From NCBI GenBank assembly GCA_022823665.1, contig JAJEHN010000008.1, positions 129,847-193,846 on the forward strand: 64,000 nt of DNA, in the 5' to 3' direction. Of this stretch, positions 29,986-58,156 are shown in pieces. The position numbers were made by a program, and so were the translations under genes. How positions within the stretch are numbered: the first letter of the stretch is position 1; every line of letters begins with the position of its first letter. The notes under the pieces are model-generated. The model was not told where the DNA came from. It worked only from the letters and a program-made list of their open reading frames with translations, and made no database searches. Source of the DNA: Thermoanaerobaculia bacterium (lineage in GTDB: Bacteria > Acidobacteriota > Thermoanaerobaculia > Multivoradales > Multivoraceae).

Positions 29986-30822
29986 ATGACCAACCGAACC
30001 GTACTCATTACCGGCTGCTCGACGGGCTTCGGCAAGCTCGCGGCGAAGACCTTCCGGGCCAACGGCTGGAACGTCGTGGCCACCATGCGCTCGCCCGAGA
30101 AGGAAACCGACCTCGCCGGGCTCGACGGAGTTCTCGTCACGAAGTTGGACGTGAAAGACCCGGAGAGCATCGATGCCGCGTTCGAGCGCGGCATCGCCGA
30201 CTTCGGCGCGATTGACGCGGTCGTGAACAACGCCGGCTACGGCAGCAACGCGCTCTTCGAACAGTCGCCCGATGCCTCCGTCCGCGACATCTACGAGACG
30301 AACGTCTTCGGCCTGATGAACGTGATGCGCCGCGCCCTGCCCGACATGCGGGCGCGGGGCGCCGGCTGCATCGTCAACGTGACATCGATGGCGGGCCTGA
30401 TGGGCCTCCTCGGCAACTCGGTCTACTCGTCGTCGAAGTTCGCGGTCGAGGGCCTGACCGAGGCGCTCGCGCTCGAGTACAAGCCACTCGGCATCCGCAT
30501 CGTTTCCGTCGCGCCCGGCGCCTACCTGACGACCGCGTTCGGCGACAACACGGACAACTACATCGAAGCAGGCGACATCCAGCTCGTCGAGCACTCGGAG
30601 AAGCTCCGCGACCACTTCGCCACGATCGTCTCAGGCGGCAAGCCGCAGGACCCGCAGGAAGTGGCCGACAGGATCTACGAATGCGTGACCGCGGACGACG
30701 TCCCGGTCCACAACCCCGTCGGCGCCGATGCCGAGCGGCTCAGCGGCCTGATCGACAGCCTGCCATCGCGACAAGCGTTCGTCGCCGCGATGGAGCAGAT
30801 GCTGCTACCGCCGGCCGGCTAG
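29986..30822 (+). CDS. SDR family oxidoreductase
   Basis: TGCSTGFG cofactor motif; YSSSK catalytic motif. Confidence 0.85.
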   Translation: MTNRTVLITGCSTGFGKLAAKTFRANGWNVVATMRSPEKETDLAGLDGVLVTKLDVKDPESIDAAFERGIADFGAIDAVVNNAGYGSNALFEQSPDASVRDIYETNVFGLMNVMRRALPDMRARGAGCIVNVTSMAGLMGLLGNSVYSSSKFAVEGLTEALALEYKPLGIRIVSVAPGAYLTTAFGDNTDNYIEAGDIQLVEHSEKLRDHFATIVSGGKPQDPQEVADRIYECVTADDVPVHNPVGADAERLSGLIDSLPSRQAFVAAMEQMLLPPAG

Positions 30823-30903
30823 CGCTAGCGTTGGCTAGCGGAAGCAGCGCTCATTTGACAGAAGCCGGTAACCAACGCCTGAGACCTGGTCGGCGTGGAG
30901 TCG

Positions 30904-33900
30904 TTATGGTCCTCGTCGCGCCCCTGCAGTCGAGTGCTCAAACTTGAAACGCACCGAGCCGCGACCGATCTGCTTGAAGCGGTTGCGCGTGTCGTCGCCC
31001 AACGGATTCGGCAACTCAAGGACCATCCAGCGTTCAGGCGAGAAAACGAAGGGAACATAGAGGATCCGATAGCGTCGACGGCCACGCTTCGGCATCCTGG
31101 CCGCCACTCGCATCTCGTTCGGCGTCAACTCAAACTCGCCCGTATCCCCAACCGACGACTTGACTTCATACATCCACTCTGCCTGCGGCGTCTTGACGCA
31201 GAAGTCGTACCCCGCCGCGTCATCGCCTTCACTCCCTCCGAAGAAGTGGACTCGATTCGTTGAAACCCAACAGGTCTCGTCCACGACGTCGCGGTGTCGC
31301 CGTCTCAGGTACTGGAACGCCAGCCACTCGCTGGCGAGCCCCATCGCCCGCCGCTGATCCTCGTGTGGCCTCTTCGCGCGCCGAGTGCCACCGCCAGGCC
31401 CAGCGCCCCTTGTCTGGCCGCCAGCTCGCACTTCGGCCAACCTGGGCCGGCTGCGGCTGCGTGCCCACCAACTATCGTCACGCCTTAGACTCTCCTCGGC
31501 CACTTCCAGGAACGCATGAGGGAAAGTGAGATCTCCTGTATCGAGCCTCGTCCCGCCGAAGCAGACACTGCGTCTATCGACAATCATGCGCTGCCGTTCC
31601 GTCTCTCGTCGCCGTTCCTCCTCGTCGACGGCGGATTGGTCAATCCCAAGTGTCGCGGTGTCCAGCGTTCGCGGCATCGTCTCAGGCCAACAAGCGGAGC
31701 GGAGACAGAGTTCGGGGAGCTGAGCGTCGTCAATCCGCTCGAAATCGAGGAGTCCGGCGTTCTCAAGGTGCCGCGCAACGGCTTGCGGCTCCTTGCTCGA
31801 CCAGTGTTCAGGGACAGGGGCACCAGCGCGGTGACACCAAGCGAGGACGACAGAACTCGCACGAGATGCGAAGTTGCGCACCGCCTTGCGATTCGCTTCC
31901 GACACACTCCGCAACGACTGGAGACTGACATCAACGTCCTCTCCGAGCACCTCGTCGAGTAACTCAAGAACATGGCTCTCGACGATCCGCTGCTCCAAGG
32001 TCTCCTTCGTCTGAATCCACTCGGGATCGAACGCAAGGAACGTGAGCTTCTTACGTTCCACGTAGGCTCCGAGGTCGCGCCCTTCTCGGAAGTCGGCTAC
32101 GTGGCGCCGTCGCAGTCGATCGACGATCGCAGGTCCCATTCCCCGGAGATACGCGTCGTACAGAGACCGAAGATGGGCCTCGTTCGAGAGCGGCCGTTCG
32201 TCCAATGCCAGCAGCGTGCGGTTGAACCGCTTGTAGTCGAGATCAAGCACCCTCCGCACCGCCGCACGATCCGAAGACTGCTCACAGGCGCTAAGCCAAT
32301 TGATCGGCGCGAACTCCAAAGGGGGAAACCGTGAACAGAGCCAGTCGCGCACGTCGAACTCGGCCTTGCTCCGCTCCGCGTCGTCCTCAAACTGTCGAGC
32401 AAGCGCCGTACCGCCGAAGTACGCGACGACGGGAGTCAGCAGGTGCAGAACATGCCCCAGGTCTGTTTGCAGGGCAGCACGATGCTCCTGCAGGGTCTGC
32501 GCGTCACATCGAAGCGCCTTTGCGAGCGCCTCGTCGGACGGAGCATCAAGCCCAACCCCCTCCTGCCCTAGGGCGAGCCGCGGAAGGAGCGACTCGAGAA
32601 ACCGCAACCGAGTGTCTATCAGTCGCGAGATCGGTCGGGAAAGATCCCTTCCCAGCGTCGTCCACGTCAATGGCATGCGATCCGACAGGACTAGGGTGGG
32701 GAACTCGGGATGCTCAAAGCCGTAGAACTCCAGCCTGTCCTTCGGCGACGGTCCCGCCTCGTCGACGACGAACTTGATCGTCCGGCAGTGTCTCACTCTG
32801 ATGGCCCTAACGCGCCGTTCGACGGTGATAGGGAGCACGCCGCGCTCGAGCTGCTCGGCGAGCATCTGATGGCCAAGGATCACCGTCTCCGGCAACCACT
32901 CCAACTCGATAGACGTGAGGAACGGGTCGGCCGCACTGGGCACGAAGGGCTCGCCGTCCACCAACAGCTTCACGTCGGTCCCGCCCAGTTGGCGGGGTAC
33001 GAACCGGCCGGTCGCGTCCAGCTGATCGGCGATTCTCTCGCTCGAGGCGTCGCCGATGTCGAGCAACGCGTGCCCGGCTGAGGAGAGCATGCTCGCCTCG
33101 AGCGTGTTTCCACCTTGGGCGAGAATCACCGTGGTAGGCGTCGCAGCATCGCCGCTCAGATTCTCGTATCGGCCGTCCCGGCTCACTGCGAGACTCAAAT
33201 CAGCGGGCAAAACGGCATCCGTTTGCGCAACGTCGAACCAGGCTCGACGGTACTCCCTGCGGAATGCAGGCCTGTCGTGCCCCGCCAGGGCTGGAGCTAC
33301 TGCCGCAAGCACTTCCAGGCGCTCGGTCGCGGTTCCCTCGTCGTGCCAATCCCGAAGCCCGAGGGTACCGAACACCAGTTTCGAGAGGTCCTCACTGCCC
33401 TCAACGAGACCTGCCAGAGCGTCCGGAAGGCGGTCCACGAATCGCGGCGGACGTTGCCTCCTCGTCTTGGCAGCCCAGCACTCGTGGGGGCTTCGGAAGG
33501 CGGGTTCCTCGCGGGCACCCACGGCAACCCAGGCTCTCGACCGGAGAAATGTAGCGAGCGGCGTCGGAACGTTCCGCTTGTCCCAATAGGGCTGAGTTCG
33601 CTCGAATCGGCCAACGTCGAATGTCAGGAACTCAGCGCCTTGCGCTTCCAGGTGCCTGAATGCAAGCTCGTGGAACATCTCCTTCGCGCCTTCGGGCAGC
33701 TCTTCGTGCTCCATTTGGCCAGGAAACCGCCACGCCTCTCCCTTCCTTTGGTATACGGTGTAGGGATGCCGGAAGGATGTGAGCGACGCCTCCTTGCACC
33801 AGTCCTCGTCAAGGGCCTCTTCGGCGACCCCTTTTCGAACGAACTGGCCCCACCTCCACCCCTCGCCACGCGCTAGCATCTTGCCCGGAACGGGCCTCAG

Positions 33901-36186
33901 CCCGTCCGAAACGCCAAGCAGCGCCAGAAACTCGACCCACCGGCGCTTGCTGCCACCTGGGACCATCGGCCAATCTGAGAAGTCCACGAGAAGTCCCTCA
34001 CGGGCCCGTCGGCAGTCCGGCGACGTGTCGGTCGCCTCCATCAGGAAGTTCTCGAGGATCCGGCCTACAGGCGTCCAGGAAGACGAATACGCCGCCTGAG
34101 TCGCCGGTTGCCAACCGCTCAGCGTCGGTACCCACAGTTCGGCGTTCCGAAGCGCATCCTCTATGGTGCCTCCCTTCGCCCCCCAAACTCTGAACGCCCA
34201 GGTCAAGGCCTCCCGACGACGATTGTCATTGGCTCTGGCGCCCAAGGCGGAGGCGAGCCCGGACAAGGCTTCCACCGGGTCGTACTCGCGGACGAGGTCG
34301 GCCTCGAGCAACGCGTTCAGCGTCTCCCGCCGGAACCGGATCTTCTCGTCGACGAAGCGGTAGCGTCGGGCGAGCGTCGCCGGCGGCAAGGGAACGCCAC
34401 CCTTCGTACGCGTGCGTCTGGGTGTTTCGGTGCGCACGAAGACGCCGCGCCCCGAGGCACCATCCACTCCTGCCGCCCGCAGTCTCTTCGACCGATCCAG
34501 CATGATCCGCTTCCCGGCCAACGCCCGGAGATTCGCGCCGGCAGCCCTGAACACCGGTCCGAGGTCATTGTAGAAGCGTGACCAGGTCCGCGGCTTGGCG
34601 TTCCTTTCTGCAAGAGACCGCGCAAAGGACTCGGACCATTCGGCGAGACGCTCGCCGGACGGCCGCAGATTCCAGTGAATCCGCTTTGCCATGGCTTCGA
34701 GGCGCTCACGCCGGCCTTCGTCAACCACCGTCGACACGAGCTGCGCGCCGGCTCGTCTCGCGACCTCCAAGGCCTTCATCAACGAGAATCTCCCCGCCGG
34801 CCAGACGTGGACTCCAGACAGACTTGACCAGTGGCAACGGTCGACCGGTATCACCGGAACAACGCGTGCGTCCTTCAGCGAACTGCCCATGCCATCCAAG
34901 GCGGCATCCAGCTTTCCGGCGTGTGGACCAGTCCAGGCGAACAGATCGAAGACAGCGCGCTGAAGAGTCGGCGTGTCCGCCTTTCTGGCGATGTGCAGTG
35001 CCGCCCGGGCACTCGCCTCGGCAGCTGCTTCCAGCAGCACCGCGTTCAGTGGGAGGTCGAGGTCCGCCCTGCGGCGGTCGATTCCCGCGAAGAATGGCGC
35101 GTCGAGATGGCCAAGAAGGGGCGCAGGCGCCGCATCGCCCATAGGCAGGAAGTTGTAGAGGCGGCCCTCGGCCACCGCCCCGTGGGAAAGGCCAACAGCG
35201 ACCGAAACCGTCGGCTGGCCCTTCCAGTCGAGCCAGCGCTTGAGCTGTGGTGCTCTCGATATGCTTTCCTTGACCGCCCTGAGTACGAGCGCCTTGTCCA
35301 CTTCGCGTTGGACAACGAGGAAGCGCCGATCCTGGCCGACGCCGACCTCATACAGTCGGCAGCCTGTGGTGCCCGGCACGTCGCGAAATGACCTCTGGCT
35401 GCGAGTCAACCGACGCCGATAACGCCGCCCGTCCGGCGTCTTCACGTCGATGCGGAAGTCCCCGATGCGGTCCAGGAATAGCAAGAGAGGCACATCAAAG
35501 TCCGCAAGCGCCCGCGTTTGGCGCTCCGCCAACGTGATCGCGTCGGGCGCGGACAAAGGCACGACGATGACCGTCGCGTAGCCTCGGCGGGCATAAGCAA
35601 CAACCTCCTCGGGCTGTTCGACGAGTGGCTGAGGGACGAGATAGCGTGGAACCGTATGGGCGACTTCGCGGGCCGTCGTCGCGTCAAGACGCCTAGCGAG
35701 AAGGAGCTTCTCGATCTCGCTCACGGCGGCGAACCTGAAGCAATAGCCATCGAAACGTGTCGACTCGTCCATGCCGACGCGTGAGAAGATGCGTACGTCG
35801 TCTGTCAGCGCTTCAATGCTCCTGAAGCCGAGACCCTTGTTGCCGATGCCCTCGCCGATCTTCTTGGCCGTGGTCGCAAGGTTCTCTATGGCTTCGACAT
35901 CCCTCCTACGGAAGCCGGTGCCTCCGTTGGCCACATACAGGGTGCCCTCGGTCTCGGAGCGCACAACCAGCTCTACGGCAATCCGCCCCTCGCCTTCGTC
36001 CCGATGCGCGTCGTGCGCGTTCTGTATCAGCTCGTACAGAACCCGGTCGCCGTACTCCGTCCCGACCACTTCGTTCAGGTTGCGGAGACTCTCGTAGACC
36101 TTGAGTTTCTTCCCGTGCGCATCCACGGCGTGGTCCAGCACATTGCGGACTTGCCTGTTCAGATCCTGGGCGGGGGCGTGGGTCAT
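30904..36186 (-). CDS. 1760-aa NO VEIN-like protein: N-terminal sacsin/MORC-type GHKL (HATPase_c_3) ATPase + long uncharacterised middle region + C-terminal NOV_C/DUF3883 (restriction-endonuclease-like) domain
   Basis: Single uninterrupted ORF. Bergerat N-box YELIQNAHDA and G2 box GIGNKGLGFRSIEA at the N-terminus. C-terminal DUF3883 signature (GLASEWLAFQYL...GYDFCVKT...YEVKSS...FELTPNEMRVA...YRILYV). No Walker or helicase motifs seen. Confidence 0.85.
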   Translation of the reverse strand: MTHAPAQDLNRQVRNVLDHAVDAHGKKLKVYESLRNLNEVVGTEYGDRVLYELIQNAHDAHRDEGEGRIAVELVVRSETEGTLYVANGGTGFRRRDVEAIENLATTAKKIGEGIGNKGLGFRSIEALTDDVRIFSRVGMDESTRFDGYCFRFAAVSEIEKLLLARRLDATTAREVAHTVPRYLVPQPLVEQPEEVVAYARRGYATVIVVPLSAPDAITLAERQTRALADFDVPLLLFLDRIGDFRIDVKTPDGRRYRRRLTRSQRSFRDVPGTTGCRLYEVGVGQDRRFLVVQREVDKALVLRAVKESISRAPQLKRWLDWKGQPTVSVAVGLSHGAVAEGRLYNFLPMGDAAPAPLLGHLDAPFFAGIDRRRADLDLPLNAVLLEAAAEASARAALHIARKADTPTLQRAVFDLFAWTGPHAGKLDAALDGMGSSLKDARVVPVIPVDRCHWSSLSGVHVWPAGRFSLMKALEVARRAGAQLVSTVVDEGRRERLEAMAKRIHWNLRPSGERLAEWSESFARSLAERNAKPRTWSRFYNDLGPVFRAAGANLRALAGKRIMLDRSKRLRAAGVDGASGRGVFVRTETPRRTRTKGGVPLPPATLARRYRFVDEKIRFRRETLNALLEADLVREYDPVEALSGLASALGARANDNRRREALTWAFRVWGAKGGTIEDALRNAELWVPTLSGWQPATQAAYSSSWTPVGRILENFLMEATDTSPDCRRAREGLLVDFSDWPMVPGGSKRRWVEFLALLGVSDGLRPVPGKMLARGEGWRWGQFVRKGVAEEALDEDWCKEASLTSFRHPYTVYQRKGEAWRFPGQMEHEELPEGAKEMFHELAFRHLEAQGAEFLTFDVGRFERTQPYWDKRNVPTPLATFLRSRAWVAVGAREEPAFRSPHECWAAKTRRQRPPRFVDRLPDALAGLVEGSEDLSKLVFGTLGLRDWHDEGTATERLEVLAAVAPALAGHDRPAFRREYRRAWFDVAQTDAVLPADLSLAVSRDGRYENLSGDAATPTTVILAQGGNTLEASMLSSAGHALLDIGDASSERIADQLDATGRFVPRQLGGTDVKLLVDGEPFVPSAADPFLTSIELEWLPETVILGHQMLAEQLERGVLPITVERRVRAIRVRHCRTIKFVVDEAGPSPKDRLEFYGFEHPEFPTLVLSDRMPLTWTTLGRDLSRPISRLIDTRLRFLESLLPRLALGQEGVGLDAPSDEALAKALRCDAQTLQEHRAALQTDLGHVLHLLTPVVAYFGGTALARQFEDDAERSKAEFDVRDWLCSRFPPLEFAPINWLSACEQSSDRAAVRRVLDLDYKRFNRTLLALDERPLSNEAHLRSLYDAYLRGMGPAIVDRLRRRHVADFREGRDLGAYVERKKLTFLAFDPEWIQTKETLEQRIVESHVLELLDEVLGEDVDVSLQSLRSVSEANRKAVRNFASRASSVVLAWCHRAGAPVPEHWSSKEPQAVARHLENAGLLDFERIDDAQLPELCLRSACWPETMPRTLDTATLGIDQSAVDEEERRRETERQRMIVDRRSVCFGGTRLDTGDLTFPHAFLEVAEESLRRDDSWWARSRSRPRLAEVRAGGQTRGAGPGGGTRRAKRPHEDQRRAMGLASEWLAFQYLRRRHRDVVDETCWVSTNRVHFFGGSEGDDAAGYDFCVKTPQAEWMYEVKSSVGDTGEFELTPNEMRVAARMPKRGRRRYRILYVPFVFSPERWMVLELPNPLGDDTRNRFKQIGRGSVRFKFEHSTAGARRGP

Positions 36187-36295
36187 GCGAGAAGCGCTGT
36201 CCTGTCAACCTGCCGGAGCGCACGGCCGCCGATACGGAATCTCCAAGGCTCTCGGCGCCGAGGGAGAGAGGCTCCTCACACCGGCACCACTGACC

Positions 36296-36781
36296 TCAGT
36301 CGTCGCTCCTCTTGTCGAGGAGCATGTAGACCACGAACGCGATGCGGTCTTTTCGCTGGGCATCCCTGAACTTGGCTACGGCCCGCTCGGCCAAACGGAT
36401 CGTCTGGAGGACATCCGACTTGATGAGGCGCTCGGCGGGGTCGTAGTCCGCCCGGTGGCGAGCTCGCTGGAGGTTGATGAACTCCAGCGCGACGTCCTTG
36501 AGTCCTACCGGGAAGCCCATCTGCTTCTTGCCGGTGATCTCCTTGCACCGGCTCTTCGCCTGACCGTGATTCAGGGCGCGGTACGTCTGCCGCCAAGCTC
36601 GCTCGCTCCGGTCCGACTGGTCTCCACCGACCAGCAGGTCCGCGCCGGACGCGGCGACACAGTGGAACAAGGCGTAGTAGGCGGTGCTGACGGCTCGTCG
36701 CAGGTCTGTCTCTCGAGGCCGACCAGCGCCCTGCTGGGTGACTAGCGAGCGGGCTGTCCTGATGAAGTCATCCGGCTTCAA
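36296..36781 (-). CDS. HEPN-domain protein (PF05168-like)
   Basis: RAVSTAYYALFHCVAA matches the HEPN helix-2 signature (SRAYYAMFHAAKA). C-terminal ...NLQRARHRADYD matches the HEPN C-terminal R/H...DY region. Overlaps the upstream small gene by 14 nt. Confidence 0.6.
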   Translation of the reverse strand: MKPDDFIRTARSLVTQQGAGRPRETDLRRAVSTAYYALFHCVAASGADLLVGGDQSDRSERAWRQTYRALNHGQAKSRCKEITGKKQMGFPVGLKDVALEFINLQRARHRADYDPAERLIKSDVLQTIRLAERAVAKFRDAQRKDRIAFVVYMLLDKRSDD

Positions 36782-37097
36782 CGATGCGCACCTGCTCGCG
36801 ATACCAATCCCAGTCCGCCCTGTCGCTGAAGTGCGGTGCCAGATCGGCGTCCATCCCTTCTTCGCGCAGCCTGTGCAGCACTCGTCTCGTCAGGCCAAGA
36901 GTCCAATCCGGGTCGAGTGCCTCCTGGTCTCCTCGAAACACGATGTCCACTCGAAAGTAGGGATCACCGTCGTGATCGACGAGTTCCCTGACCACGACCG
37001 GGCCGAACTCAAAGGCGTCCCCGAAGTGTCCGGAGAGATCCTCGTGGATCAACCTCTTGATGGAACTCACAAGTTGGCGGTTCATCTCGGCAGTCAT
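36768..37097 (-). CDS. small hypothetical protein (109 aa), upstream overlapping partner of the HEPN gene (possible divergent MNT-like/antitoxin partner)
   Basis: GGAGGAG RBS about 13 nt upstream of the ATG. Position and overlap are typical of MNT-HEPN/TA pairs, but the canonical GS...DxD nucleotidyltransferase motif is not evident (has FGDAFEF...DHDGD). Confidence 0.45.
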   Translation of the reverse strand: MTAEMNRQLVSSIKRLIHEDLSGHFGDAFEFGPVVVRELVDHDGDPYFRVDIVFRGDQEALDPDWTLGLTRRVLHRLREEGMDADLAPHFSDRADWDWYREQVRIVEAG

Positions 37098-37287
37098 GTC
37101 AGACCCAACTCCTCCGTCCCAAGAGCGGCCGCGCTCCTAGCTGTCGCGCGACCGCGGGACTCACCCCGTAACCGAATCCTACATCCGGCCTGCCCCAGTG
37201 ACACGCCTCCGACTACCCGTCGATGACCATCCCGCAACACCCCGCGAACCCGTCCGCGGCCAACTCACTGCCCGCCGGACCGCCCCA

Positions 37288-39603
<2,316 letters not shown>

Positions 39604-53721: not shown

Positions 53722-56703
53722 ATGATCCGCGCTGCGCCCTTCCTCCTTGCCTGGCTGGCGGCGGTCGGAACGGTCGCCGGCGCGTCGGAGATCGATCCCG
53801 CCGACCTCGAGTTCTTCGAGTCGAAGATCCGGCCGGTCCTCGTCGAGCGCTGCTACCAGTGCCACGGCGGCGATCCAGCGAAGATCCGCGGCGGGCTGAT
53901 CCTGCTCGACGCGGAGGGCGTGCGCGCCGGCGGGGACAGCGGCGCCGTGATCGTCCCGGGGTCGCCCGAGGAAAGCCTGATGATCGAGGCGCTCCACTAC
54001 GAGGGTCTCACCCAGATGCCGCCGGACGGCAAGCTGCCGGCGCACGTCATCGCCGACTTCGAGCAGTGGATCCGCCGCGGAGCGCCCGACCCGCGAACCG
54101 GCGGGGAGCAGACGGTGGTCGCCACGAGAACTGCCGAGACGTTCGACTACGGCCCCGGCCGCGAGCACTGGGCCTTCCGGCGAGTCGAAGACCCGGCGCT
54201 TCCCGACGTCGAGAACGAGGCCTGGGTGAGCCATGCCCTCGATCGCTTCATCCTGGCGCGCCTCGAGGAACGCGGCCTCGCGCCGGTGGCGCCAGCCGAC
54301 AGGCGCACGCTCCTCCGCCGAGCCACCTTCGACCTGATCGGCCTGGCCCCGTCGGAAGCCGAGATCGAGGACTTTCTCGCCGATGAGAGCCCCGAAGCCT
54401 TCGCCAAGGTCGTCGACCGGCTTCTCGCATCGCCTCACTACGGCGAACGCTGGGGCCGCCACTGGCTCGACATCGCCCGCTACGCCGACTCGAACGGTCT
54501 CGACGAGAACATCGCCTTCCCCAACGCCTTCCGCTACCGCGACTACGTCGTCGACTCCCTGAACCGGGACAAGCCCTTCGACCGCTTCGTCCGCGAGCAG
54601 ATCGCGGGCGACCTGATGCCGGCGGACACCGACGCGCAGCGCTTCGAGCAGATCACCGCCACCGGTTTCCTCATGCTGGGCCCCAAGGTGCTTGCCGAGC
54701 AGGACGTGGACAAGATGCTGATCGACATCGTCGACGAGCAGGTCAACACCGTGGGCCGCGCCTTTCTCGCCCTGCCGGTCGGGTGCGCCCGCTGCCACGA
54801 CCACAAGTTCGACCCGATCCCCACGGCCGACTACTACGCGATGGCCGGCGTCCTGCGCTCGACCGCGACGATGAGCGACGCCGCCGGCATGCGCTGGCTG
54901 GAGCGGCCGCTGGCCCCGGACGACGAACTCGCCGAGTACGAGGCGGCCCGGAAGCTCGTCGCCGAAGCGCAGGAGAAAGTCGACGATGTGGTCGAGGAGC
55001 AGAACGACGTCCTGCGCCGTCCGCGCCGCGCGGCCCTCGCCGAGTACCTGCTCGCCGTGGAAGAGGCCTACCCGAGCTGGAGCGACGACGAGGCGAAGCA
55101 GGAGAAGGCGCGCGAGACGATCGCCGAGGTCGCCGGCGACCGCGGGCTGGAACCTCCGGTCCTGGAGCGCTGGGTCAGGGCCTTCTACCGCTACCGGGAA
55201 GGCCCGCCGGTCGAGGGGGATGCCCCGAGCCCGAGCACGGTCTTCGTCATCTGGAACGCCTACGCCGCCGCCTCGCCCAATCGCTACGAGGAGGTGACCG
55301 AAGAGCTGCGGGCGATCATCGCCTCGGAGAAGGTGCTGACGGCGCCGCTGACCCGGAGCCTCGTCCGCGGGCCGGCGCCGAAGACGCTGGAAGAGGTCGC
55401 CTGGCGCTACGCGAGCCTCTTCGCGACGATCGAGATCGCCTGGGAAGAGCACCTCATGCGACTCGGCCTCAAGGACGAGGACGAGCTCGCGCCGTCGGAC
55501 TTCAGGCTGCCGCGTGAGCAGGAGGAGTTGCGCTGGCTGGTCTACGACGGCTACTTCTGCATCCCCTGCCTCGACCAGGAAGAGGAGGAGAAGCTCTACC
55601 CGCCGGAGGTGCTGGAGCGGCTCGCCGAGCTGCGCACCGAAGTCGAACGCCTGGAGGAGGCATCGCCGCCCGCACCGCCGTACGCGATGGCGGTGGAGGA
55701 AGCGGAGATCGTCGATCTGCCGGTGCACATCCGCGGCAGCCACGTGAACCTCGCGGAGAAACCGGAGCCGCGCGGATTCCTGAAGGTCACGGACCACCTC
55801 GTGCCGCCTCCGCCGGTAGCCGCGGGCGCCAGCGGCCGGCTCGAACTGGCGCGCTGGATCACCCACCCCGAGCACCCGCTCACCGCCCGCGTCATCGTCA
55901 ACCGCGTCTGGCACTGGCACTTCGGCCGCGGCCTCGTCGACACACCGAGCAACTTCGGCGCGATCGGCAGCAAACCGACGCATCCTGAGCTTCTCGACTG
56001 GCTGGCGCGGCGCTTCGTCGAGGGCGGGTGGTCGCTGAAGAACCTGCACCGCGACATCATGCTGTCGAGCACCTACCGGCTGTCGAGCGACTACGACGCC
56101 GCCAGCGCCGCGGTCGACGAGGAGAACCTCCTCCTCTGGCGCAACAACCGGCGCCGCCTGGAGGTCGAGCCGATCCGGGACGCCCTGCTGCAGCTCGCCG
56201 GCCGGCTCGACCTGACGATCGGAGGACGGGTCGAGGAGTACGACGCAAGGGGATACGTCTTCGGCGAAACCGGCACCCTCGGCCGGATCGACATCTACGA
56301 CGCGCCCAGGCGTTCGATCTACATGCCGGTGGTGCGCACCGCCATCTACAACATCTTCGGCGGCTTCGACTTCGGCGACGCGAGCGACTCGGTCGGCGAT
56401 CGATCCGAGACGGTCGTGCCGCGCCAGGCGCTCCTGATGATGAACAGTCCCTTCGTCGAAGAGGCGGCGCTCGGCTTCGCCAGGCAACTGCTGGAGATCG
56501 ACGGCGCAAGCGCCGCGGATCGAATCGACACCGCCTTCGTCCGCGCCTACGGCCGCCCGGCCGACGATGTCGAAATCGAAGACAGCCTCGCCTTCCTCGA
56601 CGAGATGCGTCGCGGAGCGCCGGCGGACGAGGCCGAGATCTACGCCTGGACCCGCCTCGCCCACGTCATCCTCGCGGCCAGCGAGTTCATCTACATCAAC
56701 TAG
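53722..56703 (+). CDS. PSCyt2 (cytochrome c) + DUF1549 + DUF1553 (PSD1) domain protein
   Basis: CYQCH haem motif in a PSCyt2 context; DUF1549 and DUF1553 signature stretches. Characteristic PVC-type gene. Confidence 0.85.
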   Translation: MIRAAPFLLAWLAAVGTVAGASEIDPADLEFFESKIRPVLVERCYQCHGGDPAKIRGGLILLDAEGVRAGGDSGAVIVPGSPEESLMIEALHYEGLTQMPPDGKLPAHVIADFEQWIRRGAPDPRTGGEQTVVATRTAETFDYGPGREHWAFRRVEDPALPDVENEAWVSHALDRFILARLEERGLAPVAPADRRTLLRRATFDLIGLAPSEAEIEDFLADESPEAFAKVVDRLLASPHYGERWGRHWLDIARYADSNGLDENIAFPNAFRYRDYVVDSLNRDKPFDRFVREQIAGDLMPADTDAQRFEQITATGFLMLGPKVLAEQDVDKMLIDIVDEQVNTVGRAFLALPVGCARCHDHKFDPIPTADYYAMAGVLRSTATMSDAAGMRWLERPLAPDDELAEYEAARKLVAEAQEKVDDVVEEQNDVLRRPRRAALAEYLLAVEEAYPSWSDDEAKQEKARETIAEVAGDRGLEPPVLERWVRAFYRYREGPPVEGDAPSPSTVFVIWNAYAAASPNRYEEVTEELRAIIASEKVLTAPLTRSLVRGPAPKTLEEVAWRYASLFATIEIAWEEHLMRLGLKDEDELAPSDFRLPREQEELRWLVYDGYFCIPCLDQEEEEKLYPPEVLERLAELRTEVERLEEASPPAPPYAMAVEEAEIVDLPVHIRGSHVNLAEKPEPRGFLKVTDHLVPPPPVAAGASGRLELARWITHPEHPLTARVIVNRVWHWHFGRGLVDTPSNFGAIGSKPTHPELLDWLARRFVEGGWSLKNLHRDIMLSSTYRLSSDYDAASAAVDEENLLLWRNNRRRLEVEPIRDALLQLAGRLDLTIGGRVEEYDARGYVFGETGTLGRIDIYDAPRRSIYMPVVRTAIYNIFGGFDFGDASDSVGDRSETVVPRQALLMMNSPFVEEAALGFARQLLEIDGASAADRIDTAFVRAYGRPADDVEIEDSLAFLDEMRRGAPADEAEIYAWTRLAHVILAASEFIYIN

Positions 56704-56728
56704 ATTCCGGTCTCAGGACCGCCAGACG

Positions 56729-58156
56729 ATGCGCTACCCCCACTACCAGCCGCCACCGCTGACCCGCCGCCAGATGCTGAAGACCTGCGGCTGCGGCTTC
56801 GGCGGCCTGGCGCTCTCCTCGCTGCTGCAGCGCGACCTCCTGGCCGCTGAGCCCGGGAACCCCCTCGCGCCCCGCCCGCCGCACTTCGCCCCGAAGGCCA
56901 AGCGGATCATCTTCCTGCACATGCACGGCGGTCCGTCGCAGCATGACCTCTTCGAGTACAAGCCGCTTCTCATCCGCGACGACAACAAGCCGCTGCCTTT
57001 CGCCAAGCCCCGCGTGCAGTTCAACGAAACCGGCAACCTGTTCAAGAGCCCCTGGGAGTTCAAACAGCACGGCCAGTCCGGCGCCTGGGTGAGCGAACTC
57101 ATGCCCAACATCGCCTCGGTGGTCGACGACCTCTGCTTCATCCGCTCGATGTGGGGCACGAACGCCGCCCACGGCGGCGCCATCCTGGCGATGAACACCG
57201 GCAGCGACCGCTTCGTCCGCCCGTCGATGGGCTCGTGGATCGCCTATGGCCTCGGCACCGAGAACGAGAACCTGCCCGGGTTCATCACGATCTGCCCCTC
57301 GTACCAGCACGGCGGCGTCCAGAACTACTCGTCGGCCTTCCTGCCCGCCGCCTACAACGGCACGGCGATCGGCACGACGCGGATGAAGACGGAAGACGCC
57401 ACGATCGACTTCCTCGACAACGAGACCGTGTCGCCGGAGGTCCAGCGAAGCGAACTCGACCTCCTGCAGCGCTGGCAGCGCCGCCAGCTCGAGCAGACCG
57501 GCCCCGACCAGGCGCTCGAGGGCCGCATCGAGTCCTTCGAGCTGGCGTTCCGCATGCAGACCGAGGCGCCCGAGCTGATGAGCATCGAAGGCGAGTCCGA
57601 GGCGACCAGGCGGCTCTACGGCCTCGACGACCCGGTGGCCCGGAACTTCGGGCTCCGCTGCCTGCTTGCCCGACGCTTCTCGGAATCCGGCGTCCGCTTC
57701 GTGCAGGCGACCCACGGACCGGACTCGAAGTGGGACCACCACTCCGGCCTCATCACCGGCCTGCCGCAGAGTTGCGCCGAGGTCGACCGGCCGGTGGCCG
57801 GGCTGATCAAGGACCTCAAGTCACGGGGGCTGCTGGACGAGACCCTCGTCCTCTGGGGCGGCGAGTTCGGCCGCACTCCCGGCGCCGAAGCCGGCGCCCG
57901 CAACGGCCGCGACCACAACCCCCACGGCTACACGATGTTCATGGCCGGCGGCGGCGTGAAGCCCGGCCACAGCCACGGCCGCACCGACGACTACGGTTAC
58001 TACGCGATCGAGGACAAGGTCCACATCCACGACCTCCACGCCACGATCCTGCATCTGCTGGGCCTCGACCACGAGCGGCTGACGTACCGCTCCCAGGGGC
58101 GCGACTTCCGGTTGACGGACGTCGAGGGCCTGGTCGTCGACGACATCATCGTCTGA
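56729..58156 (+). CDS. DUF1501 domain-containing protein (sulfatase-like fold) with Tat signal
   Basis: Start MRYPHYQPPPLTRRQMLKTCGCGFGG. Canonical partner of the preceding DUF1549/DUF1553 gene. Confidence 0.85.
   Translation: MRYPHYQPPPLTRRQMLKTCGCGFGGLALSSLLQRDLLAAEPGNPLAPRPPHFAPKAKRIIFLHMHGGPSQHDLFEYKPLLIRDDNKPLPFAKPRVQFNETGNLFKSPWEFKQHGQSGAWVSELMPNIASVVDDLCFIRSMWGTNAAHGGAILAMNTGSDRFVRPSMGSWIAYGLGTENENLPGFITICPSYQHGGVQNYSSAFLPAAYNGTAIGTTRMKTEDATIDFLDNETVSPEVQRSELDLLQRWQRRQLEQTGPDQALEGRIESFELAFRMQTEAPELMSIEGESEATRRLYGLDDPVARNFGLRCLLARRFSESGVRFVQATHGPDSKWDHHSGLITGLPQSCAEVDRPVAGLIKDLKSRGLLDETLVLWGGEFGRTPGAEAGARNGRDHNPHGYTMFMAGGGVKPGHSHGRTDDYGYYAIEDKVHIHDLHATILHLLGLDHERLTYRSQGRDFRLTDVEGLVVDDIIV

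Follow-up and report, generated by a model that had tools for sequence, protein, structure and literature searches.

A Tiamat gene and a toxin–antitoxin-like HEPN gene pair as probable separate modules of a katG-adjacent hotspot in a Thermoanaerobaculia genome

We analyzed a 64,000-nucleotide stretch of a Thermoanaerobaculia bacterium genome (assembly GCA_022823665.1, contig JAJEHN010000008.1, positions 129,847 to 193,846), hereafter the window. Our subject is the segment at window positions 30823-37287, which lies between a short-chain dehydrogenase (SDR) gene and katG and encodes a 109-aa protein, a 161-aa HEPN protein and a 1760-aa giant protein. A first-pass annotation of the sequence had described the segment as a low-GC insertion carrying an undescribed three-gene defence-like system.

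The described systems closest to these proteins are Tiamat and the HEPN-containing toxin–antitoxin modules. Two papers attribute Tiamat to Millman et al. 2022 and describe it as enriched in Actinobacteria, nearly always chromosomal and of unknown mechanism (PMC10482375, PMC12926258). The 2022 preprint of the Tiamat paper did not yet use the name. Tiamat is listed among the PD-(D/E)XK single-gene systems (bioRxiv 10.1101/2024.10.26.620412) and is common as cargo of Pseudomonas island hotspots (PMC12629846). Its mechanism was the subject of no paper found by our literature search. The DUF3883 domain, which the giant protein carries at its C-terminus, has been termed a restriction-endonuclease (REase) domain (PMC3710099). 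Classical HEPN proteins of the COG2250 type pair with a minimal nucleotidyltransferase (MNT) of COG1708 (PMC2701414). HEPN-T proteins resembling AF0298 retain the Arg of the catalytic motif, have lost its His and carry an alternative conserved His in an insert between helices 2 and 3, and HEPN domains without the motif have been proposed as non-catalytic binders (PMC3710099). We found no paper on UPF0332, the family of AF0298, in a search of the literature.

Our comparisons point to a tmtA gene, the single gene of Tiamat, beside a separate pair of genes that resembles a toxin–antitoxin module. We consider it probable that these are two independent modules in an accessory hotspot. The adjacency of the pair (module A) and tmtA (module B) would then be an instance of the way in which defence and toxin–antitoxin genes usually gather in hotspots, not an obligate three-gene machine.

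The giant protein within the TmtA family

The giant gene (30904-36186, minus strand; from the open reading frame (ORF) list) was matched end to end by a PADLOC model of TmtA (PDLC03971; E = 0, 1669.4 bits), with residues 4-1750 aligned to model positions 12-1779 of 1782. Seven further sub-models of the TmtA set (PDLC03964-03972) matched shorter stretches. The four strongest of these spanned approximately residues 29-480, and the models of other TmtA subfamilies matched only about the first 450 residues. Homologues are numerous (907 at E ≤ 1e-10). Among the best 120 listed, full-length homologues are 54-69% identical to the window protein. On this sequence evidence, the giant gene is tmtA and its product a full-length member of a published family; the description of the system as undescribed does not hold for this gene.

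The N-terminal domain is a GHKL (Bergerat-fold) ATP-binding domain of the sacsin type (residues 39-136; 35779-36072, minus strand). It was recognized by the NCBIfam model NF047352 P_loop_sacsin (66.1 bits against a cutoff of 50, residues 47-133) and by Pfam SACS (residues 39-135). Profile comparison with the sacsin crystal structure 5v47 gave E = 0.046, short of the default threshold of 0.001, with the motifs ELIQNAhDA and GnkGlGFrS aligned. The first-pass annotation had called this domain sacsin/MORC-type. The sacsin part of that label stands and the MORC part does not: HATPase_c_3 (PF13589) scored 16.8 bits against a cutoff of 25, and no single stretch passes. The C-terminal NOV_C/DUF3883 domain, of the PD-(D/E)XK nuclease fold (residues 1654-1711; 31054-31227, minus strand), had been predicted correctly, with 23.5 bits against the Pfam PF13020 cutoff of 22.1. 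The approximately 1500 residues between the two domains have no assigned domain.

Both domains retain their motif residues. Across 24 homologues with 54-69% identity, the N-box residues E52, N56 and D59, the G-boxes N87-G88-G89-x-G91 and G115-N-K-G-L-G-F121, and the triad D1661...E1674-V-K1676 are invariant. TmtA may therefore function as an ATP-gated nuclease, in which ATP binding and hydrolysis by the GHKL head would control recognition or clamping of invading nucleic acid and would then license the C-terminal nuclease to cut it.

Compared with Tiamat as described, the window protein shares the end-to-end model match, the stand-alone gene, the PD-(D/E)XK C-terminus and, among its relatives, chromosomal settings resembling defence islands. 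We found no structural difference. The protein represents one TmtA subfamily, which may or may not be that of the experimentally tested gene. One NCBI record of the protein (P0125) is annotated with 1552 aa instead of 1760 and is 100% identical over 88% of the query. It looks like an N-terminal truncation or a mis-called start; the full 1760-aa form is also present in NCBI, Logan and ENA.

We compared the neighbourhoods of TmtA genes in other genomes. The set comprised 36 loci: 34 full-length loci, one genome per species, from Acidobacteriota, Alpha- and Gammaproteobacteria, Streptomyces, Binatia, Methylomirabilota and other groups, and two metagenome contigs (L077 and L078). The latter came from three look-ups of the closest orthologues, of which the third (L079) returned the same contig as L010. 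No homologue of the 161-aa or the 109-aa protein was found at any of the 36 loci within up to 10 kb (6 kb for L077 and L078). Within 4 kb of TmtA, all-against-all clustering of the ORFs of 38 distinct loci yielded no recurrent neighbour family. Dissimilar genes surround the nearest orthologues (66-69% identity). One adjoins GmrSD, an integrase and type IV secretion genes, another adjoins BREX PglZ, a methylase and a PLD protein, and a third adjoins a RelE/HTH toxin–antitoxin pair and IS21. Judged by these gene contexts, TmtA behaves as a single-gene defence cassette of defence islands. The giant-gene homologues thus occur elsewhere without the small partner genes that the three-gene proposal had attached to them.

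The small gene and the HEPN gene as a pair

The HEPN gene (161 aa; 36296-36781, minus strand) begins with a TTG codon, and the resulting N-terminus, M-K-P-D-D-F, agrees with the family consensus. The small gene (109 aa; 36768-37097, minus strand) has a GGAGGAG Shine-Dalgarno sequence 8-14 nt upstream of its ATG at 37097, and its last 14 nt overlap the HEPN gene, exactly as first described.

The HEPN protein is not recognized by standard family models. It had no Pfam HEPN match up to E = 10 and did not reach the gathering threshold of PF05168. Thirteen of 42 family members match Pfam HEPN weakly (best E = 6e-4). A profile of the family matched PDB entry 2hsb (AF0298, UPF0332) with E = 8e-4 and 9xbd, a "HEPN domain-containing protein", with E = 0.026. 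The predicted structure is a HEPN helical bundle, for which AF0298 is the best match by fold as well as by sequence profile. The family comprises more than 2216 clusters, and some members carry the JGI label UPF0332. The HEPN identity assigned in the first pass is thus borne out, specifically as a basic HEPN-T protein of the AF0298/UPF0332 type.

The canonical Rx4-6H motif is absent. The corresponding sequence is R108-H-R-A-D112-Y113-D, with no His 4-6 residues after R108. In the family, R108, D112 and Y113, at the end of the helix formed by residues 92-113, are invariant, as are H40 and H72. The latter sits in an insert between helices 2 and 3 (residues 60-83), so that the retained R108 and the invariant H72 reproduce the variant described for the AF0298 subgroup. 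The R-x3-D-Y signature aligns with R-E-E-S-D-Y of AF0298, and the conserved His N-terminal to it, in the insert, agrees with the description of the subgroup. The two proteins differ in that they are only 22% identical and that the window protein is approximately 35 residues longer, with extra helices. The window protein also matches the phage protein family phrog_5176, of unknown function (E = 1.3e-8). No homologue was found in GenBank phages and IMG/VR contained only three contigs with one, so the gene is not a typical phage gene.

The 109-aa protein had no sequence match in Pfam, NCBIfam, PADLOC, PHROG or PDB. A word-indexed search retrieved only four close homologues, whereas an exhaustive phmmer search retrieved a family of 155 representative clusters, mostly of 100-125 aa. 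The predicted structure (predicted local distance difference test score 93.9) has the topology alpha-beta-beta-alpha-alpha-beta-alpha, and its best fold matches include OsmC-like and RbfA/KH-like proteins. Sixty aligned family members contain neither the GS...DxD motif nor any invariant residue. We considered that the protein might be an MNT nucleotidyltransferase and rejected this on the absence of that motif, the structure model and the fold matches. Some members of the family are larger: P0247 and P0258 are tandem duplications of the domain, and P0267, P0276 and P0329 carry a helical N-terminal extension of approximately 120 aa with no Pfam match; neither form hints at a function. The two proteins of the pair contrast strongly in isoelectric point (4.8 for the 109-aa and 9.9 for the 161-aa protein), as do the family medians (4.7 and 9.8).

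The pair recurs well outside the window. Four loci (L006-L009) encode the same overlapping pair, with an S9 peptidase gene on one side and an RND efflux operon on the other. The L007 pair shares 54% (HEPN) and 45% (small) identity with that of the window (E = 2e-24). No full-length TmtA lies within 8 kb of the pair at these four loci; the L007 sequence runs out within the first part of an 852-aa HATPase_c_3 gene, which is unrelated. We also collected 80 metagenome loci with the HEPN gene, of which 69 have at least 330 nt of upstream sequence and 50 have at least 1.5 kb of flank. At most of the 69, a co-directional ORF (mostly approximately 95-210 codons between stops) ends between -22 and +25 nt of the HEPN start, the commonest offset being -13. 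Between 33 (global search) and approximately 45 (targeted search) of these upstream ORFs were recognizable as homologues of the 109-aa protein. TmtA occurred at none of the 50 loci with the longer flanks. The pair is also present on 30 plasmid records, 27 of them from Rhizobium and 20 predicted to be conjugative. In pRL23b2, the sole plasmid locus that we inspected, adjacent genes of 117 and 153 aa, both annotated "hypothetical protein", lie approximately 3 kb from repC, and no TmtA-sized gene is annotated within 4 kb of them.

These features, namely small overlapping genes, charge complementarity, a patchy and mobile distribution over plasmids, metagenomes and variable contexts, and residence on plasmids, fit a type II toxin–antitoxin or addiction module, as far as gene order and sequence can indicate. 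Module A would be an operon of two genes coupled in translation. Its HEPN protein would act as a toxin that targets RNA through R108 and an alternative His (H72, or H40), and the small acidic protein would neutralize it by direct binding, in the place held by the MNT of classical HEPN–MNT pairs. Of the features above, the charge complementarity is the one that points to such toxicity and neutralization. The difference from HepT–MntA (COG2250/UPF0332 with COG1708) lies in this partner, which is not an MNT. Because classical COG2250 HEPN proteins pair with an MNT of COG1708, the 109-aa protein can be seen as a substitution for it. We tentatively propose that the pair belongs to a previously undescribed and widespread HEPN toxin–antitoxin family in which an acidic KH-II/OsmC-like protein is the neutralizer. 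This is a serious possibility that we would stop short of calling probable.

The pair could alternatively be something other than a toxin–antitoxin module: a HEPN-like non-catalytic binder of RNA or nucleotides with a KH-II-like partner, serving a stress or regulatory role that might be connected to katG and oxidative stress. The loss of Rx4-6H and the proposed binding role of motif-less HEPN domains are consistent with this, as are the OsmC-like and RbfA/KH-like fold matches of the small protein and the linkage of the pair to katG in at least five related lineages. Outside the clade, the neighbours of the pair are unrelated (the S9 peptidase gene and RND efflux operon, and plasmid repC), so the katG linkage reflects local synteny. 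Relatives with a katG approximately 88% identical at the nucleotide level lack the pair. Toxin–antitoxin modules typically show what is seen here, namely a distribution that is both patchy and mobile, small genes that overlap and an acidic/basic contrast, and HEPN-T proteins resembling AF0298 keep an alternative conserved His (PMC3710099), in line with the invariant H72 and H40 here. We therefore regard a non-toxin role as unlikely and continue with the toxin–antitoxin-like interpretation.

The katG-adjacent hotspot and the probable independence of the modules

The three genes are co-directional on the minus strand, at the ORF positions first given, and Pfam confirmed the SDR gene (29986-30822, plus strand) and katG (37288-39495, minus strand) as the flanks. 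Between the katG stop codon and the small gene lies a 190-nt intergenic region (37098-37287, minus strand), and the right edge of the accessory segment falls at 37287/37288. A 109-nt spacer (36187-36295, minus strand) separates the HEPN stop codon from the tmtA ATG; the gap noted in the first pass is real and one nucleotide shorter than the 110 bp reported. The other edge of the segment is an 81-nt convergent spacer between the SDR and tmtA stop codons (30823-30903).

All three genes are identical in a second NCBI assembly (GCA_022820205.1, contig JAJEFX010000048.1). In more distant relatives, katG is 85-88% identical at the nucleotide level to that of the window, and the katG stop codon is where the cargo begins in every one of them. 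The cargo itself varies. L005 encodes the pair and TmtA followed by an amidohydrolase gene, not the SDR gene, with approximately 80-86% nucleotide identity and 76% amino acid identity of TmtA to the window, and its homology ends at 30930, within the 3' end of tmtA. In L165, the pair is followed directly by the amidohydrolase gene; compared with L005, the 5.5-kb tmtA cassette is cleanly missing. L080 carries the pair and then an integrase and insertion sequence (IS) elements. Homology of L080 and L165 with the window ends at 36291/36292, in L165 approximately 5-10 nt past the HEPN stop codon, which places the left edge of the tmtA cassette approximately 10 nt past that codon. L166 and L167, two independent assemblies with the same SDR flank, have an intact pair and a tmtA with deletions of 540 nt (window 35491 to 34951) and 270 nt (32500 to 32229). 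L166 is approximately 92% identical from the pair into the 5' part of tmtA and approximately 83% from the 3' part into the end of the SDR gene, and the SDR junction is common to it and the window. In L081, the HEPN gene is truncated at approximately residue 86; next come an AAA_14/DUF4143 gene, transposases and a gene for a TIR protein.

Two relatives lack the segment altogether. L162 and L163 are approximately 88% identical to the window across katG, their homology ends at 37287/37288, and unrelated cargo of toxin–antitoxin type follows: an M78 peptidase and a DUF4411 protein in L162, and a 182-aa gene, an SDR remnant and a PIN-domain gene in L163. The remnant (L163:12237-12370; 134 nt, 81% identity) corresponds to the 5' part of the SDR gene (window 30025-30158) and lies approximately 1 kb downstream of katG. 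Because this island-less locus keeps SDR sequence near katG, the comparison hints at an earlier arrangement in which the two genes lay close together.

The insertion of cargo between katG and the SDR gene, proposed from the window alone, is supported as accessory and foreign-looking by relatives whose homology ends exactly at the katG stop codon. These alignments identify the stretch as accessory DNA in a hotspot that varies between strains and starts at that codon. Its content is supported as defence- or toxin–antitoxin-like, as first suspected. The claim that did not survive is that of a three-gene module, since the pair and TmtA are distributed independently, and loci without TmtA (L165, L080) or with a decayed copy (L166/L167) keep an intact pair. 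The series of states at this one hotspot shows that TmtA and the HEPN pair are gained, lost and decayed independently; TmtA may have been gained once or lost several times.

Further observations concern the neighbourhood of katG in these relatives. A 106-nt copy (L080:10814-10919, 82% identity) of an internal, 3'-proximal katG segment (window 37553-37658) lies in L080 directly after the HEPN stop codon and before a tyrosine-integrase gene. An integrative element with katG as its target may have left it as an att-like duplication. L005 (1-2851) and L081 (1-3819) carry a Gabija-like pair, a DUF2813/AAA_15 ATPase and a UvrD_C_2 protein, a few kb upstream of katG. L081 also has a Type ISP restriction enzyme upstream of katG and a CAP12/PCTIR TIR protein downstream. 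With these genes in L005 and L081, the katG neighbourhood forms a wider defence island in the clade, though not in the window.

Base composition bears out the low-GC description. The GC content of the stretch is 0.638 against 0.684 in the rest of the window, and the stretch is the lowest-GC 6.5-kb interval in the 64 kb (3.3 standard deviations under the mean). The dip first reported is thus real, and the values quoted for it, 57-65% against 68-70%, were slightly overstated: 500-nt windows range from 0.61 to 0.67 inside and from 0.65 to 0.73 outside. The contrast is much stronger for GC content at third codon positions (GC3), which is 0.742 in tmtA, 0.709 in the small gene and 0.827 in the HEPN gene against 0.873-0.930 in five flanking genes.

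The low GC could instead reflect only gene composition or expression level, with the segment being ancestral core genome. The overall dip is modest (approximately 4.5 percentage points), and the window's copy has no att-like flanking repeats, tRNA or integrase. Against this stand the presence/absence polymorphism at exact boundaries in relatives, at least six cargo states in the lineage, the drop of 10-20 points in GC3 in all three genes, and the location of the closest TmtA relatives in distant phyla, in integrative-element or defence-island contexts. We consider a core-genome origin extremely unlikely.

Searches for integration scars and regulatory signals were mostly negative. No tRNA or integrase was found in the window as an integration target. 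Candidate att-like flanking repeats were short, imperfect two-copy matches and were judged to be chance. Among them, a 23-nt imperfect direct repeat (19/23, 83%; 30719-30741 and 36252-36274) brackets tmtA: its first copy falls within the SDR gene, at the 3' end, and its second within the spacer that precedes tmtA. This repeat was not found at the indel junctions of L005 and L165 and is probably also chance. No sigma-70 promoter or intrinsic terminator consensus was found on the coding strand of the spacers. The 109-nt spacer folds no better than shuffled sequences (z = +1.36); it is conserved in L005, including TTGA(C/T)AGG just upstream of the tmtA ATG. Rfam returned only a sub-threshold miRNA match on the locus, judged to be chance, and hence no evidence for an RNA antitoxin.

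The main competing explanation is that the three genes form one defence system, with the HEPN protein as abortive-infection effector, the small protein as inhibitor or sensor and the giant protein as a sensor or DNA-targeting arm. Several observations favour it and weigh against our interpretation of two independent modules. The genes lie on the same strand and are tightly spaced, with the 14-nt overlap and a 109-nt gap without recognizable terminator, and all have depressed GC3. The trio is kept with identical junctions in a second lineage, L005. All TmtA-less states could be secondary losses, and cooperation in this lineage therefore stays compatible with the comparative data. The screen of TmtA neighbourhoods covered this HEPN and partner family; other HEPN families were not searched. 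Other points bear on the functions assigned to the modules. The HEPN domain may be non-catalytic because it lacks Rx4-6H, and the KH-II/OsmC-like topology of the partner, without a DNA-binding domain, is atypical of a type II antitoxin. Toxicity of the HEPN protein, its neutralization by the partner and anti-phage activity of this TmtA subfamily are properties that we infer.

The distribution of the genes nevertheless argues against a single system. The trio occurs only in the clade of the window (the window, L001-L004 and L005) and is decayed in L166/L167. Outside it, co-occurrence was found at 0 of 36 TmtA loci and 0 of 50 HEPN loci, and TmtA has no recurrent neighbour. The pair stays intact where TmtA is missing or decayed, and it resides on the 30 plasmid records, where the inspected locus has no annotated gene of TmtA size nearby. 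TmtA also diverges faster than the pair (76% against 88-97% amino acid identity). We therefore judge a single three-gene system to be very unlikely and retain the interpretation of two modules.

A second low-GC patch at approximately 58-60 kb was considered as a possible island and rejected, as what it contains is an ordinary DUF1501 gene together with one for a sodium:solute symporter. Elsewhere in the window, 53722-58156 encodes DUF1549/DUF1553/Planctomycete-cytochrome-C and DUF1501 genes. The pairing of DUF1549/DUF1553 with DUF1501 is typical of Planctomycetota, Acidobacteriota and Verrucomicrobiota. Taken with the best TmtA match, which came from a Vicinamibacterales metagenome-assembled genome, it gives a hint of the host phylum.

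Implications for Tiamat and for HEPN modules

An undescribed three-gene defence system is not upheld by these results. The large gene can already be labelled by automated tools (PADLOC, DefenseFinder). For this Tiamat subfamily, the likely catalytic residues can now be stated at the sequence level, which is a useful outcome.

A functional coupling of the HEPN pair and TmtA specific to this clade, for example with TmtA, once triggered or inhibited, releasing the HEPN RNase as a back-up that acts by abortive infection, is conceivable, and we give it little credence. If true, it would make the locus a prokaryotic split-gene counterpart of the combination of GHKL ATPase and HEPN-T in sacsin. Eukaryotic sacsin comprises sacsin-type GHKL repeats, a DnaJ domain and a HEPN-T domain. 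Here, by contrast, the GHKL and HEPN domains are in separate genes whose linkage is not conserved, and TmtA ends in a nuclease domain and lacks DnaJ. We regard the resemblance as a probable coincidence.

What lies outside curated families at this locus is the pair, in which an AF0298-type HEPN protein is accompanied by a small acidic protein, and it is modestly novel. Models in Pfam, NCBIfam and PADLOC leave this family uncovered, although it comprises more than 2,000 HEPN clusters and approximately 155 partner clusters. As a toxin–antitoxin or abortive-infection module, if it is one, the pair would control its HEPN protein in a way that differs from the AMPylation of HepT–MntA.

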